DNA of 64,000 nucleotides from positions 32,001 to 96,000 of the forward strand of contig JAYKGY010000104.1 of NCBI GenBank assembly GCA_035285545.1, given 5' to 3'. Source of the stretch: Snowella sp. (GTDB taxonomy: Bacteria > Cyanobacteriota > Cyanobacteriia > Cyanobacteriales > Microcystaceae). The position numbers and the translations under genes are program-made. This document shows positions 23,275 to 42,438 of this stretch, piece by piece. Position 1 is the stretch's first letter; every line of letters starts with the position of its first letter. The notes below the pieces were generated by a model that was given only the letters and a program-made list of their open reading frames with translations, had not been told where the DNA came from and did no database searches.

Positions 23275-24627
23275 TCATAGATTATAAGTTGCATAAAAAT
23301 CTTGATATAAGCGGCATTTTATGATTACTTTATTACCTTGCTTTTTGATTAGACCTAGATCCTTAAGTTGACTGACAAATTTATAATTAATAAATATGGA
23401 TTCTTCAGCAGTAAGAATGCGCTTAAAAACCTGAATTAGTTCGGGGAATTGTTGTAACGATAAAGCTTGTTGATAGAGAAAATGAATATAATCCCCCGTA
23501 TAATTTGATGAATTTTCCAAGAAGCTTTCTAAACTAATTGAAGTTGTTCTGAGTTTATATAAAGCCAGTCTTATTAAGTAAGGATGACCACCAAAACTTT
23601 TGATCAAACTATTAATTTGTTCATCTGAAAGTTGTAATTGATGATTAAGGATTAAATTCTGAATTTGTATTTTTTGAAAATCTTCTAATTCAACTAATGC
23701 TCCTAAATTAAAGAGACTAGAATCAATAGAAAAGAAATTAGCAGTAGAAGTAGAATAAGCAATAATAAAACGTATCTTTTGCCAACACGTTTGGGACTTA
23801 GCTCTTTCATGCCAACTACGAAGTAGGCTTAAAAAATTCTGAGTTATTTCTATACTTACAAAAAGACGATCTAAATCATCTATTGCCAAAACTAGCGGCT
23901 GATGTAAGCTCGGTAAAATATAATTTTCTAAATATTGAGTACAACAATCATTGCTACCCAAAATATTTGAATTCCAGTAACGATTTAAAGCATTTTCTAA
24001 ATTTAATTCTCGTCCAAGGATTAAACATAACCATTGTAAAAATTGATCTCCATTATTTAAAATATGAGACTCTAGGCTGAATAGGTCTAAATAAAGCGTT
24101 TGATAAAATTGGATTTTAGCTTGATATAAAATTTTTTTGAGCAAAGATGTTTTACCCATCAGTGGCGGCGATCGCAGTTGAAGCAATGCTCCAGGCTGAT
24201 TAATTAATTGATGGCAAAAGGATTCATAGTGGCGTTCTTGGTATAACGGAGAATCAGGAGGAACAGAACCTTCAGGGAAAGGAAAATCAGTTAAGGAGAA
24301 ATGATTTACTATAGAGTGTGAAGAAGCACTTTCGTTGTTTTCTTGCTTTTGGCTAAACTCCTCTATAATTGTTTTAAAATTACTTTTAGTAACAGACTTT
24401 CCAAAAGCTAAGGAAAGTTTTTGCCATAGTTTCGGGCCAACATCTCCTCGCAAATAGTTGACAGACAGATAACGTTGTTGAGCAATCTGATTATAGGTTA
24501 AGCCTTCCCATACATCTTGCAATAGGTTTAAATGTATATCTTTTAACGGTTCGCCAAAATGGGCGAGAACAACAGTATCGATGATTTGTCTTGCCTGTTC
24601 CCAGGTAAAAGTCAATTTAGCACTCAC
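23275..24627 (-). CDS. N-terminal HTH + AAA_35 (AAA-like, STAND-related) domain protein
   Basis: N-terminal LLQDVWEGLTYNQIAQ...YLRGDVGPKLWQKLS HTH; FPEGSVPPDSPLYQER, Walker A SPPLMGKTS, Walker B LAIDDLD, LLRSWHE and GGHPYL. Confidence 0.88.
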   Translation of the reverse strand: MSAKLTFTWEQARQIIDTVVLAHFGEPLKDIHLNLLQDVWEGLTYNQIAQQRYLSVNYLRGDVGPKLWQKLSLAFGKSVTKSNFKTIIEEFSQKQENNESASSHSIVNHFSLTDFPFPEGSVPPDSPLYQERHYESFCHQLINQPGALLQLRSPPLMGKTSLLKKILYQAKIQFYQTLYLDLFSLESHILNNGDQFLQWLCLILGRELNLENALNRYWNSNILGSNDCCTQYLENYILPSLHQPLVLAIDDLDRLFVSIEITQNFLSLLRSWHERAKSQTCWQKIRFIIAYSTSTANFFSIDSSLFNLGALVELEDFQKIQIQNLILNHQLQLSDEQINSLIKSFGGHPYLIRLALYKLRTTSISLESFLENSSNYTGDYIHFLYQQALSLQQFPELIQVFKRILTAEESIFINYKFVSQLKDLGLIKKQGNKVIIKCRLYQDFYATYNL

Positions 24628-25092
24628 AAAGGGTTTAGATTCAGCAGTACTTGCAGATGAGGATCAAGGATCCAGACAAATAGTAAAAATATCTCTAACG
24701 AGTAGCTGCATGAGGATTATTATTGACTATCTCTGACTTAAGAACAATCTTTTGAGTTTCCTTATCTCCTGATTATCTGGAAGTACTACTGATTTTCGCT
24801 AGATGTATTTTTCTTTAAACCCAATTGTTATCATCTATTCAACACAGATGTTTCAGCACTGCCTTGAAAAATAAAATGGGAAGTGCGCGCTTCGCTTTAT
24901 TCTTTAGCTGATACAGGATAGGTCTGTCAGTATTAATAGTATGGTGCTCTATCAAAAAGACATATCATACATTTTAAGGGTGTTATTAGAGTTATGAACA
25001 GAATTTGAATCTATAATTTTGGGATGATTACTGAAAAAAGCTTATGATCGTTAATGATGTTTACGCAGTGTAATCTTCGCCTTGAATTCTCA

Positions 25093-25128
25093 AAAAATAC
25101 AGACAAAAATACAGACAAAAATACAGAC
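25093..25128. repeat. 3 x 12-bp perfect tandem repeat (AAAAATACAGAC) in a divergent intergenic region
   Basis: Read directly at 25093-25104, 25105-25116 and 25117-25128. Confidence 0.95.
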
Positions 25129-25604
25129 TTAAGCATGAAAAATTTTCAATATAAGCTGACCGTTTAAACAAAAAATCAGTATCCATCAAAATAAAGTTTA
25201 CAGATATTATTCCTGAGCATTAAGGATTGAAAAATTTAATTTTTAGCTGCAAAATAATAAAAAATAGCCAATTCAGTCCAGTGATTTTTTATCTTAATCA
25301 ATCAAAGTAGAGCATTAGTTTTGTTGTAAAACTGGTTTGTGATTGGTCAAAATTCATTTAATTTTTCTTAGTATGATTGTTTTTGATAAATTGCATACTA
25401 AGAGTTTGCAGCGTAGAGATTCTTGAACTTTATTTAAAAACAAGGTTAATGAATTTAATCTATAAATTTAAGCCGGTTTAGGTAAGTAGTTTGGGCAAAA
25501 ATCAACTTCTTATCATATTTTTTACAAAAAACTTAGATTTATTCTGCTCTGCATTAGTTAAAACTTGAAATGGTAAACAATATCTCAGGTTAAGGAGATA
25601 AATA

Positions 25605-26384
25605 ATGCTTTTTAGCAAAGACAAAGATCTTCACTATTCATCAACTTTATCTACGAGTAAGCATAATGTAAATAGTAAGCATAATGTAAAAACAAAATGG
25701 ACAGAAAAAAATACTCGTTTAAGTCCCCAAGTTAATTTTAATTTAAATAAAAAGGAAATTTTCCACAACGCTTCTTTTGTAGAATCTTCCAAGCTTGAGA
25801 ATAATTGTTTTCCCGTCTCAAAAAAAGAATTAAAAAAAAGACAAAATAAGTCTGAAATTCAAATTTTGTTTTGGAAATATTGGTTAGAACACGAATCCTA
25901 TCTATATCGCTGTTGTTTGAATTGGCTTAATTATCATCAAACTAATAGCGAGGAACTTTTACACAGTGGAATGCTAAAAGCTTATCAAAAATTTCTTCAA
26001 TATTATAGCCAGATTCGTAATATTAAGGCTTGGTTAAGACAAGTTATTTATCATCTTTATATCGATCAATATCGTAAAAATAATTACCATTTTTCTTCTA
26101 TAGAAGCGTTTAAAGATATATTAATTTCTCCTGATTGTTATTCGCCCCATTCAATCATTACGCTTCAAGAAATCAAAGAAATATTTCAACAGGTTCTGAG
26201 TCAGTTACCACCTCAACTATCTCAATCTTTTTATTTACGTTTTTATGAAGAGAAATCTTATGAAGATATTGCGCGATCGCTGTCAATTTCCGTTTGTAAC
26301 GCGAGGAAGCGAGTACAACTAGCCAGAGACAAATTAAAACAACATTTAGCTTCTTACTTAGGTAATAATTTTTTTGAAAATTGA
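25605..26384 (+). CDS. ECF (sigma-70 group 4) sigma factor with N-terminal extension
   Basis: Region 2 (YLYRCC...SEELL...KAWL.QVIYHLYIDQYRK) and region 4 (LSQLPP...LRFYEEKSYEDIARSLSIS..NARKRVQLAR); AAGGAG RBS. Confidence 0.9.
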   Translation: MLFSKDKDLHYSSTLSTSKHNVNSKHNVKTKWTEKNTRLSPQVNFNLNKKEIFHNASFVESSKLENNCFPVSKKELKKRQNKSEIQILFWKYWLEHESYLYRCCLNWLNYHQTNSEELLHSGMLKAYQKFLQYYSQIRNIKAWLRQVIYHLYIDQYRKNNYHFSSIEAFKDILISPDCYSPHSIITLQEIKEIFQQVLSQLPPQLSQSFYLRFYEEKSYEDIARSLSISVCNARKRVQLARDKLKQHLASYLGNNFFEN

Positions 26385-26449
26385 TTAAATGGCAGGTGAT
26401 CATGTTAGAATAACCATCTTCTAGGCAAACAGTTTTCAAATCTAGGATA

Positions 26450-41422: not shown

Positions 41423-41482
41423 TATGTTTAAATCCTCAAAATAAAATGCAAAAACTGATTATTGATTGTGGGTAAACGAACA

Positions 41483-41638
41483 CTAAGTGTCTTTGACGAG
41501 TTTAGTGAAGGTAACATCTACTTGCTGTCCCTGAGCGACTATTGATCCCCCCTGAATATGAACTTCTTCCGTAAAAGTCTGCTGACGCTGAATCAGGTTT
41601 AAGGGATTGGTTGGAGTAACATTAATTTGAGTGGCCAT
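41483..41638 (-). CDS. Unannotated 51-aa beta-rich mini-protein
   Basis: AGGA RBS, then ATG to TAG: MATQINVTPTNPLNLIQRQQTFTEEVHIQGGSIVAQGQQVDVTFTKLVKDT. Fills the operon gap and resembles the C-terminus of the upstream ORF. Confidence 0.8.
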   Translation of the reverse strand: MATQINVTPTNPLNLIQRQQTFTEEVHIQGGSIVAQGQQVDVTFTKLVKDT

Positions 41639-41676
41639 GACATGTATCCTAATTAAATGAATTGATTAATTTGACT

Positions 41677-42339
41677 TTAAAGCTTGATTTTTTGAAGTTT
41701 TTGAACAGTAAGATTAGTTGGAGAATAAAGGGTAATATTACCGCCTTCTACAATTTCCAGTTCTCCTACCATTAGTACGGCGGGAAGATCCCCCTGAATA
41801 ATGAGCGAACTCCCCGCTTCTATCCGAATTTTTTCGATCGCCCAAACCGCTACTTCAAAAGGAGCATGGAGTTTTTCAATGACAGCTTTATAACTAGCCA
41901 CTAATTGGGAGTTCCCAAAGAGATAGGCATAGCCCGCTTTTTGAATATTCTCTTTTTCAAGATCTGTAAGACGACTGCTTTCAGGAAAATAGTTGGAAGG
42001 CCACGGTGAAGAAGGTAACGCCTGGGTAAAAGAAAAAACGCCTTGCTCAAATAACGCATTCGGCATTCCGATCCAGGCTTTGAATTGATCAAACTGGTTG
42101 GTTTGGCGGAGGCAGGGCCCATAGGACGTTGAGCGGTCTAAGGTCGTGGAGAGAACAACTTGGGAGTCAGCTTTAACAGTCAACAACTCCCGATGCACAT
42201 CGGAAAAATAATTGATATCAAACTCAGATAAAAAAGACTCGAAAGTCCCTTGTCTGTAAGTAAATTTAGGGTTGACTAAGTTTAAGCAATCTTCAAGCTG
42301 CTGTCGTTGAGAATAAATATCGGTAATGGCAGTCTTCAT
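41677..42339 (-). CDS. Hypothetical 220-aa protein with a C-terminal beta-solenoid-like segment; first gene of the operon
   Basis: Likely start MKTAITD (ATG 42339; the longer TTG start lies inside the upstream motif). C-terminus IRIEAGSSLIIQG...GELEIVEGGNITLYSPTNLTVQKLQK. Confidence 0.8.
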   Translation of the reverse strand: MKTAITDIYSQRQQLEDCLNLVNPKFTYRQGTFESFLSEFDINYFSDVHRELLTVKADSQVVLSTTLDRSTSYGPCLRQTNQFDQFKAWIGMPNALFEQGVFSFTQALPSSPWPSNYFPESSRLTDLEKENIQKAGYAYLFGNSQLVASYKAVIEKLHAPFEVAVWAIEKIRIEAGSSLIIQGDLPAVLMVGELEIVEGGNITLYSPTNLTVQKLQKIKL

Positions 42340-42399
42340 TAGATTCTTCTTCTTGATTTCAGAATTTAGCACCCTATTAAAATTACAAATTTTCTTTTT

Positions 42400-42438
42400 A
42401 AACACCAGTAAAGTTTGCAATTTTAAGTAGAAAGTTAA
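42400..42438 (-). promoter_or_regulatory. 39-bp upstream motif of the glycine-rich/terpene operon (copy 2)
   Basis: Minus strand reads TTAACTTTC-TACT-TAAAATTGCAAACTTTACTGGTGTTT; 60 bp before ATG 42339. Confidence 0.75.

Follow-up and report, generated by a model that had tools for sequence, protein, structure and literature searches.

Does a giant toxin-like gene that lies next to a small set of terpene enzymes belong with them and, if so, what do the enzymes modify? This is the question raised by a block of DNA (positions 23275..42438) in contig JAYKGY010000104.1 of the cyanobacterium Snowella sp., of which a stretch of 64,000 nucleotides (nt) was analysed, called the window hereafter. In this block a plus-strand gene for a giant Rhs protein of 2705 amino acids (aa) converges on a minus-strand operon for, among others, a glycine-rich (Gly-rich) protein, a prenyltransferase (PT) and a terpene cyclase; the genes of this operon will be referred to as the module. 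The answer that we prefer, and to which we give an even chance, is that they form one horizontally mobile system with two linked parts, in which a terpenoid-anchored protein assists a toxin machine. Its substrate, chain length, co-regulation and accessory role are what we infer. The open reading frames (ORFs) sit where a preliminary description of this DNA had put them, and the gene content reported there was borne out by ORF listing and profile searches. The features of the two parts are the following.

28195..28233, plus strand: motif copy 1, 85 nt before the ATG of the giant gene
28318..36435, plus strand: SGS-like/Tc-like Rhs/YD shell protein, 2705 aa, with DUF6443, RHS repeats and Rhs-associated core
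37259..38377, minus strand: monodomain class II terpene cyclase, 372 aa (SQHop_cyclase_C; DADD at residue 119)
38409..39347, minus strand: PhyH-type 2-oxoglutarate (2OG)/Fe(II) oxygenase, 312 aa as listed (PhyH, 70.7 bits)
39304..39669, minus strand: CxxC protein, 121 aa, with hydrophobic C-terminal stretch (C19/C22 invariant; thioredoxin-fold-like)
39714..40739, minus strand: ABBA/DMATS-fold PT, 341 aa (AlphaFold2 (AF2) model and Foldseek)
40742..41422, minus strand: Gly-rich protein, 226 aa, candidate substrate (polyglycine-II model; invariant Trp37)
41483..41638, minus strand: 51-aa protein without Trp, known in cyanobacterial versions of the module alone
41677..42339, minus strand: 220-aa protein with a conserved C-terminal beta-rich domain of ca. 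70 aa
42400..42438, minus strand: motif copy 2, 60 nt before the ATG of the 220-aa gene

An alignment of PT relatives, scanned against one genome per species, yielded 22 loci, from Cyanobacteria, Bacteroidota, Acidobacteriota, Verrucomicrobiota, Burkholderiales, an alphaproteobacterium and one bin labelled Paceibacteria. The Gly-rich gene lies beside the PT gene in 21 of them (the exception is a contig of 2.6 kb), and the PT and cyclase genes are adjacent in 17, with divergent cyclases present in three more. A homologue of the giant gene is adjacent in 13 of the 22, in three phyla, which supports the early proposal that the Rhs gene and the operon make up one unit; giant, Gly-rich and PT/cyclase homologues do recur together in the gene neighbourhoods of other genomes. 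These giant homologues are 32-64% identical to the Snowella protein over its non-repeat N-terminal part (from residues ca. 1-1450 up to ca. 1-2185). In 11 loci of Bacteroidota (Aquimarina, Flavobacterium, Mucilaginibacter and a Saprospiraceae bin) the giant gene directly follows the cyclase gene on the same strand, in the alphaproteobacterium (L024) it lies between the PT and cyclase genes, and in Westiellopsis (L006) it is found ca. 2.4 kb downstream. Thirteen metagenome contigs were mostly too short, and both of those with long flanks have the giant gene after the cyclase. The two families are rare: among 400 further genomes sampled from the phylum and 300 from Flavobacteriaceae, the PT turned up in 0 and 0, the N-terminal region of the giant protein in 2 and 3, respectively. 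Because the linkage persists through three gene orders and at ca. 35% identity, and because an upstream element unique in the genome precedes both parts, it is very likely that the conserved module is functionally tied to toxin machines. The link to the giant gene is not obligatory, since members of the giant family are also found where there is no module.

The upstream element is a motif of 39 nt, and its presence before both transcription units, noticed in the preliminary description, is real: the copies are identical at 36 of 39 positions, and 92% complementary as inverted copies, each facing its downstream gene in the same orientation. They share an identical core of 25 nt that occurs nowhere else in the window (0.00 matches expected in shuffled sequences), and in the genome (4,159,166 bases, 95.4% complete) there are these two copies only. 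The motif carries two AACTTT half-sites 21 nt apart, an exact arrangement found in the window only at these two sites. In the closest relative, another Snowella (L003), the motif is kept (36/39) at the same distance of 60 nt before the orthologue of the 220-aa gene, and the flanking intergenic DNA has diverged. It is not conserved in Westiellopsis and at the other loci, where the best matches (21-25/39) are at the level of coding or unrelated regions. A promoter scan gave a sigma-70-like site (TTTAAA-16-TAAAAT) that overlaps the motif, although shuffled sequences would lead one to expect just as many such sites in the region. Judging from these sequence patterns, a joint activation of the giant gene and the operon through the shared element is probable. 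A third, partial copy on the minus strand inside the PT gene (40087-40106, 19 of 20 nt matching the 3' half of the motif) was treated as a coincidence, though an odd one. It codes for the invariant active-site residues K-L-Y-W-R-F of the PT, and it recurs in L003 (3666-3704) because it encodes these conserved residues.

The giant gene is not the only large partner of the module. In two cyanobacteria (L004 and L005) the module, running from the 220-aa gene to the cyclase, is found inside the locus of an extracellular contractile injection system (eCIS), in the order DUF2345 or DUF4280 (which we take to be spike/PAAR-like), gp25, two Baseplate_J genes, Tail_P2_I, two unassigned genes, the module and an eCIS_core protein. 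Considering the giant-gene loci together with this eCIS locus, the module therefore accompanies two unrelated toxin-delivery machines. In eCIS loci the place after the baseplate genes is where fibre and accessory genes lie, and by analogy the position of the module agrees loosely with a putative delivery or adhesion role and with the anti-grazer purpose that the preliminary description had supposed. The tail-fibre families of PHROG and Pfam gave no match for the 220-aa, 51-aa and Gly-rich proteins, and PHROGs gave none for a 516-aa protein on the eCIS side. On another contig of the genome to which the window belongs (C85, ca. 36840-38400, minus strand) there is a 1008-aa ORF with Baseplate_J matches, and a contractile injection system or a prophage tail may exist elsewhere in this genome.

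The gene content of the module also varies from one locus to another. A MauE-family membrane protein replaces the CxxC gene in L021 (9543-9968). In L015 (5918-9217) the module is accompanied by a P450, a B12-binding radical SAM enzyme and a methyltransferase, and in L023 (2788-7153) by a radical SAM/SPASM enzyme, a Ser/Thr kinase and an FHA protein. A bin of Limisphaerales (L019, 5106-12857) has genes for 220-aa-like and Gly-rich proteins, a PT, a GT34 glycosyltransferase and a methyltransferase, followed by a giant gene whose 2583-aa product is no Rhs protein and contains seven lamin-tail domains (LTD) and a CotH kinase domain; a metagenome contig (L045, 7490-7567) matches this arrangement. 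In L024 a polyprenyl synthase gene is directly upstream of the module. The menaquinone-type genes found upstream in Aquimarina (UbiA, MenC-like, AMP-binding, Rce1-like) were judged to be unrelated neighbours. The varied extra enzymes would suit a cassette for protein modification.

By its sequence, the giant protein is a bacterial homologue of the mosquito protein SGS1, a Tc-like Rhs shell with a predicted hydrophobic C-terminal cargo. It consists of a conserved N-terminal part of ca. 1600 aa, DUF6443, RHS repeats (RHS_repeat, E 1.1e-08), an Rhs-associated core at residues 2362-2436 (TIGR03696, 61.8 bits against a cut-off of 32.5) and, behind it, a hydrophobic Gly/Ala-rich tip of 269 aa. Residues 1210-1665 align with SGS1 1339-1760 (E 2.7e-26) and residues 2196-2539 with SGS1 2482-2825, the whole-protein E value being 6.3e-73. 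With the domain borders as given in the available part of PMC9935623, these matches are collinear and include the CBM/lectin insertion region and the end of the shell. The tip matched no Tox-SGS or other Pfam domain, and a search of the PDB returned nothing meaningful; by Kyte-Doolittle hydropathy alone, hydrophobic spans lie at 2435-2471, 2518-2537 and 2556-2579, and none in residues 1-2380. At the N-terminus SpvB scored below its cut-off (E 0.0042, 16.8 bits against 22). The TcA families PF18276 and PF03538 were absent from a search of the 95.4% complete genome, a weak negative as the control genomes were silent too. Tips vary among homologues, being Gly/Ala-rich and hydrophobic in the window and in a Flavobacterium protein (G401) and having an acidic stretch and an HExxH-type motif in L024. 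No N-terminal signal peptide was seen by eye in the 220-aa, 51-aa, Gly-rich or giant protein. Tc toxins and eCIS exit cells by lysis, and this lack would suit a modification in the cytoplasm followed by release with the toxin.

A cargo of this kind could harm the cell that makes it, and the position downstream of the giant gene, where an immunity gene would be expected, shows none: between the stop at 36435 and the following Uma2 gene there is no ORF of at least 100 aa on the same strand. This could mean that the module itself is the immunity factor against a membrane-inserting cargo, or that its enzymes modify the giant protein. We consider both very improbable. Immunity proteins of polymorphic toxins normally change along with the toxin domain, and here the module is constant and the cargo varied (the hydrophobic tip, the acidic/HExxH-type tip of L024, the eCIS_core proteins of L004 and L005); besides, homologues of the giant occur without the module. 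It is because the cargo changes around a constant module, and because the module also serves eCIS, that we prefer a generic accessory to an immunity protein.

What could such an accessory be? The 341-aa protein, labelled as ABBA prenyltransferase-like in the preliminary description, was confirmed as such by its fold. The AF2 model (pLDDT 95.1, pTM 0.93) is a ten-stranded alpha-alpha-beta-beta barrel, and Foldseek places it at TM-scores of 0.71-0.76, with E values down to 2e-13, next to IptA, PriB, MpnD, 5-/6-DMATS, AnaPT and FunA, indole and histidine prenyltransferases. This kinship is seen by fold only, because no Pfam or NCBIfam family matched the sequence, and neither did any PDB sequence at E up to 10. 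Eight residues (R210, K212, Y214, R216, K271, R329, N331 and Y333) are invariant in 29 sequences of the family, and they may correspond to the basic and Tyr residues that line the barrel around the diphosphate and the carbocation in DMATS enzymes. An exhaustive profile search with the family found 352 clusters at E up to 1e-10, and 20 of the best 150 are 619-921 aa long. Four of these long forms were examined, of which one is a PT-cyclase fusion, one a PT-cyclase-PhyH fusion and two have no Pfam domain; the lengths are 619-691 aa for PT-cyclase and 921 aa for PT-cyclase-PhyH. A complex prediction of the PT with the Gly-rich protein (score 0.00, mark 0.32) is evidence for neither side.

The class II cyclase of the preliminary description was likewise recovered, by profile, PDB matches and motif. 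It is a single beta-type alpha/alpha-barrel domain of 372 aa (SQHop_cyclase_C, 56.2 bits against a cut-off of 26.1), its best PDB sequence matches being 8pak and 8paj (361-365 aa; E 2.7e-15 and 5.5e-13), and D[AV]DD is kept in 18 of 18 full-type orthologues, with DADS in three divergent ones. MstE, a characterised monodomain cyclase, uses DxD and acts on a small meroterpenoid, according to the available part of PMC12414744. In L006 a gene at 14282-16354, between the cyclase and the giant gene, encodes a cholesterol-oxidase-like FAD enzyme (Chol_subst-bind, E 2.4e-106), which would fit a polycyclic, sterol-like product. The oxygenase is a clear PhyH protein (70.7 bits against a cut-off of 22), in which H136, D138, H219 and R230 are invariant among 14 sequences; we presume the first three to be the iron triad and the last the 2OG-binding Arg. 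As listed, its ORF has a GTG start that places its first 44 nt within the upstream CxxC gene. Because the alignments of orthologues start at residues 20-46, the true start is probably an internal ATG near residue 32, which would abolish the overlap.

For the 121-aa protein the earlier label DCC1 had to be dropped, as no Pfam family matched it (E up to 5) or its orthologues (E up to 1). Its C19 and C22 are invariant in 11 orthologues. The matches to glutaredoxins and thioredoxins in PDB and profile searches are weak (E 0.076-1.5, below significance), and 11 of the 12 PDB matches listed at E up to 10 have the thioredoxin fold or are so named.

The most unusual member of the operon is the Gly-rich protein, whose model has a pLDDT of 93.6 and almost no structure assigned by DSSP. 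Its core superposes on the snow-flea antifreeze protein 2pne (Z 13.0, root-mean-square deviation 1.1 A, 81/81 residues, 44% identity) and on that of a springtail (7jjv, Z 10.7), the next match being at Z 4.1; because of this superposition the protein is, as modelled, a bundle of polyglycine/polyproline-II helices with a small beta-sheet. Two antifreeze proteins as by far the best structural matches might suggest an ice-binding protein among incidental neighbours, an explanation that we find barely credible. These two are the sole matches above Z 5 and would thus indicate a fold class, not a function; an invariant Trp, the enzymes and the toxin linkage would be left unexplained, and the carriers, which include marine Aquimarina and soil and freshwater genera, show no evident restriction to the cold. 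The fold by itself implies no function.

Among 18 aligned homologues of the Gly-rich protein, Trp37 is the sole invariant residue other than Gly, in the context C-D-W-x-S-x-C, and in 23 tabulated proteins a Trp is found at the same place in all and is the single one in 21. The loop with Trp37 is bounded by C35 and C41, and there is a second Cys pair (116/122). The CxxC protein was found in 17 of the 18 loci, the window included, that have Gly-rich forms with 4-5 Cys, and in 0 of the 4 with forms having 0-2 Cys (one of these four has MauE there). As to other Trp acceptors, the 51-aa product has no Trp and the 220-aa family no invariant one. Trp37 of the Gly-rich protein is thus a reasonably probable prenyl acceptor. 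Lipidation of a protein and a free meroterpenoid had both been left standing by the preliminary description, and the invariant Trp, the co-variation of cysteines with the CxxC protein and the published peptide precedent discussed below favour the former. A free indole or aromatic meroterpenoid, co-deployed with the toxin and with the Gly-rich, 220-aa and 51-aa genes as unrelated structural genes, would suit the nearest solved PT structures, which are small-molecule indole and histidine enzymes, as well as the action of MstE on a small meroterpenoid (available part of PMC12414744) and the cholesterol-oxidase-like FAD enzyme after the cyclase in L006. It seems improbable to us when the Gly-rich gene adjoins the PT gene in 21 of 22 loci, the one invariant non-Gly residue of its product is a Trp and its cysteines co-vary with the CxxC protein. 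Moreover, the module has no conserved gene for an aromatic small-molecule acceptor, and a PT of the same fold is reported to modify a peptide Trp in the available part of PMC13290415.

In Bacteroidota the 220-aa family is represented by versions of 113-133 aa, mostly the C-terminal beta-rich domain, and the 51-aa protein was found by tblastn in L003-L006 (42-84% identity) and in a metagenome contig (L040, 69%). The Gly-rich protein shares the stretch G-N-I-T-L-Y-S with the 220-aa protein, owing to an exact direct repeat of 20 nt (41163-41182 and 41723-41742) that codes for it. A similar beta-strand motif in the 51-aa protein hints that the three may share a structural element. Clusters of 388-403 aa that a structure search of the ESM Atlas listed as covering both would suggest a fusion of the 220-aa and Gly-rich proteins. 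This is an unverified lead; among sequences, no relative longer than the 220-aa protein itself came up.

The reading that we prefer can now be put as a series of steps. The PT would load W37 of the 226-aa polyglycine-II protein with a prenyl chain of C15-C20, the class II cyclase (DxDD) would fold the chain bound to W37 into a polycyclic terpenoid, and the PhyH oxygenase would hydroxylate the cyclised product. The CxxC protein, presumably tethered to the membrane, may form two disulfide staples that frame the Trp loop, with the 220-aa and 51-aa proteins as putative structural partners of the Gly-rich protein. The 2705-aa shell would enclose the hydrophobic, membrane-inserting C-terminal cargo, and the terpenoid-anchored protein would be a membrane-docking or adhesion accessory of this toxin machine and, elsewhere, of contractile injection systems. 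That it helps the toxin shell to dock on membranes or to adhere is a tentative suggestion. Its more specific form, a lipid-anchored polyglycine-II adaptor that docks TcA-less SGS/Tc-like shells, and elsewhere contractile particles, on target membranes, is possible but rather doubtful.

A number of observations weigh against this reading as a whole. None of the 5 sampled genomes with a giant homologue carries the PT, and a genome with a full-length giant homologue (G425) has no module gene nearby. Conversely, L021-L023 have the module and no giant or eCIS gene within 10 kb, and L019 pairs it with the unrelated 2583-aa LTD/CotH giant. BLASTP of the 516-aa and 881-aa proteins found no domain common to the giant and the neighbours on the eCIS side. 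The regulators that lie upstream of the giant gene are kept beside the module in L006 only, and the nearest solved relatives of the PT use free tryptophan, histidine or indole compounds and no proteins. The 11 loci of Bacteroidota represent four genera and are therefore not independent samples, and adjacency could partly reflect one inherited mobile island.

It is in this light that we have to consider whether the operon is an independent cassette, of the kind that makes RiPPs (peptides produced by the ribosome and modified after translation), that merely travels along in weapon islands. Its terpenylated Gly-rich product, the whole protein or a fragment cut from it, would then have a surface, signalling or antimicrobial role of its own. 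The loci with the module alone (L021-L023), the three unrelated large partners (SGS-like giant, eCIS and LTD/CotH) and the giant family known without the module would all agree with this, as would tailoring enzymes that differ by locus like those of natural-product clusters (P450, B12-binding radical SAM, radical SAM-SPASM, methyltransferase, glycosyltransferase) and known relatives that are peptide maturases, as far as the source available to us describes them. On the other hand, such a cassette would not be expected to keep its linkage to the giant gene at 32-35% identity, across phyla and in three gene orders, including the insertion in L024, nor to share with it a 39-nt element that is unique in the genome. 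The PT and giant families are also both rare, each in less than 1% of the sampled genomes, yet they co-occur. On balance we regard the independent cassette as unlikely, and continue with the single system of two linked parts.

The remainder of the block and its surroundings can be described more briefly. Three possible regulatory genes lie upstream of the giant gene, and an eighth gene on the strand of the operon separates the cyclase gene from the 3' end of the Rhs gene.

23275..24627, minus strand: AAA_35 NTPase, 450 aa, possible regulator (Pfam AAA_35, E 4.9e-106; N-terminal 116 aa of no recognised type)
25605..26384, plus strand: extracytoplasmic function (ECF)-type sigma factor, 259 aa (Sigma70_r2, r4 and r4_2 (1.8e-12); TIGR02937, E 2.2e-21)
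26450..27895, minus strand: AAA_35 protein with a weak XRE-type helix-turn-helix (HTH), 481 aa (AAA_35, E 1.9e-103; divergent from the giant gene)
36602..37189, minus strand: Uma2-family protein (putative restriction-endonuclease-like), 195 aa (Pfam Uma2, E 1.8e-34)

Both AAA_35 proteins had been labelled HTH-AAA_35, of which the AAA_35 part holds for the two of them (they are 33% identical over this domain). The HTH is weak in the 481-aa protein (HTH_3, E 2e-4 to 7e-4, and HTH_31, both under the Pfam cut-off), and no HTH family of Pfam was found at the N-terminus of the 450-aa one. That this trio controls the two transcription units, as had been supposed, is not established, adjacency being the only basis for it. 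An AAA_35 gene is divergent beside the module again in L006 only, no regulator was found alongside the module at the Bacteroidota loci, and the genome of the window has seven AAA_35 genes. Upstream of the ECF gene there is a single GAACTTT and no full copy of the motif. The trio is far richer in AT than the rest of the block (GC content 0.27-0.38 against 0.37-0.51).

The seven-gene operon stands as first described, except that the Uma2 gene on the same strand had been passed over. By tblastn this gene finds no counterpart at the 22 related loci and is therefore probably a passenger. For the 220-aa gene, the ATG at 42339 agrees with the orthologues, and an alternative ORF of 247 aa with a TTG start overlaps the motif. 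The limits of the block were drawn too narrowly, the accessory region extending from about 22.6 to 45.4 kb: in a genome of the same genus (G218) the pix genes align at 74-77% nucleotide identity and ca. 22.6-45.4 kb find no match. The left flank (16957-22503, minus strand) is a phototaxis/chemotaxis-type cluster, kept in G218 at this identity, with a 1032-aa methyl-accepting chemotaxis protein (GAF and HAMP), CheW, a CheY-like receiver and a PatA-type DUF4388-receiver protein. The next gene upstream of the operon, on the same strand, encodes a protein of 864 aa (42610-45204, minus strand) and has no DNA match in G218. In its product the N-terminus resembles a signal peptide, the C-terminal half looks like a beta-barrel and a long stretch is rich in Ser, Thr and Pro; it matched no Pfam or NCBIfam family.

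How much of this is new? The preliminary description knew of no described system of this type, which is too strong for the enzymes, as a precedent for the prenylation and cyclisation of Trp dates from 2024. In NctPC (Hubrich et al., Chem 10:3224, as cited in the available part of the review PMC13290415), where an ABBA-fold PT and an MstE-like cyclase are joined in one protein, Trp of ribosomal peptides is geranylgeranylated and the chain is then cyclised; ChrPC, according to the same part of the review, has another PT fold. In a search for literature linking Rhs/YD-repeat proteins or contractile injection with a PT or a terpene cyclase, none of the papers listed joined the two, subscription journals being mostly outside its reach. 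Beyond the descriptions that were found there are the putative polyglycine-II acceptor, the core with CxxC and PhyH proteins, and the link to SGS-like shells and eCIS. Taken as a whole, the system has a considerable chance of representing a new type of accessory for toxin delivery.

If the single-system reading is true, a modification of Trp by cyclised terpenoids that is otherwise seen on ribosomal peptides would reach a folded protein, a new kind of bacterial protein lipidation. In its more specific form, with the docking adaptor, the reading would give the first folded protein of bacteria to be lipidated by a cyclised terpenoid, and such machines their first adaptor with a lipid anchor. SGS-/Tc-like shells without TcA, to which the mosquito SGS proteins are related, would gain a directly testable candidate partner on their way to the target membrane, and contractile injection systems a new type of accessory. 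The module is small and its parts are in principle soluble, and cultured strains of Flavobacterium, Aquimarina and Mucilaginibacter carry it.

Each part of the system resembles something already known. The giant protein has its Rhs/YD shell, along with the Rhs-associated core, in common with mosquito SGS1 and SGS4 (PDB 8fjp, 9on3) and with the TcB-TcC shell of Tc toxins, and with the SGS proteins also a C-terminal segment of ca. 230-270 aa of predicted membrane helices (as described in the available part of PMC9935623). It differs from SGS1 in being bacterial, shorter (2705 against 3364 aa) and accompanied by a terpenylation module. In contrast to the eCIS loci, no eCIS genes adjoin the module in the window. 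The Gly-rich protein, as modelled, belongs to the class of polyglycine-II helix bundles that includes antifreeze proteins, the PGRS domains of PE_PGRS proteins and the tips of gp38 adhesins; it is larger than the antifreeze proteins and has a beta-sheet, two loops predicted to be stapled by Cys pairs and the invariant Trp. Phage gp38 adhesins match its model only at Z 2.0-2.5, and the PE-PGRS-like clusters of the ESM Atlas that look like it are a lead only.

The closest likeness is with NctPC, and by analogy with what the available part of the review describes the enzymes of the window look like a split version of NctPC-type chemistry. Both have a PT working with an MstE-like cyclase, and the PT family of the window has fused forms as well. 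Here the PT and the cyclase are separate genes (the two systems being compared by description, not by sequence). No short precursor peptide bearing a Trp was found, the sole short product of the operon (51 aa) having none, and the candidate acceptor is a folded polyglycine-II protein of 221-226 aa in place of such a peptide. Finally, and again with respect to NctPC as it is portrayed in that part of the review, the core of the module includes a CxxC protein and one or more PhyH oxygenases, and the module has giant toxin proteins or an eCIS linked to it.

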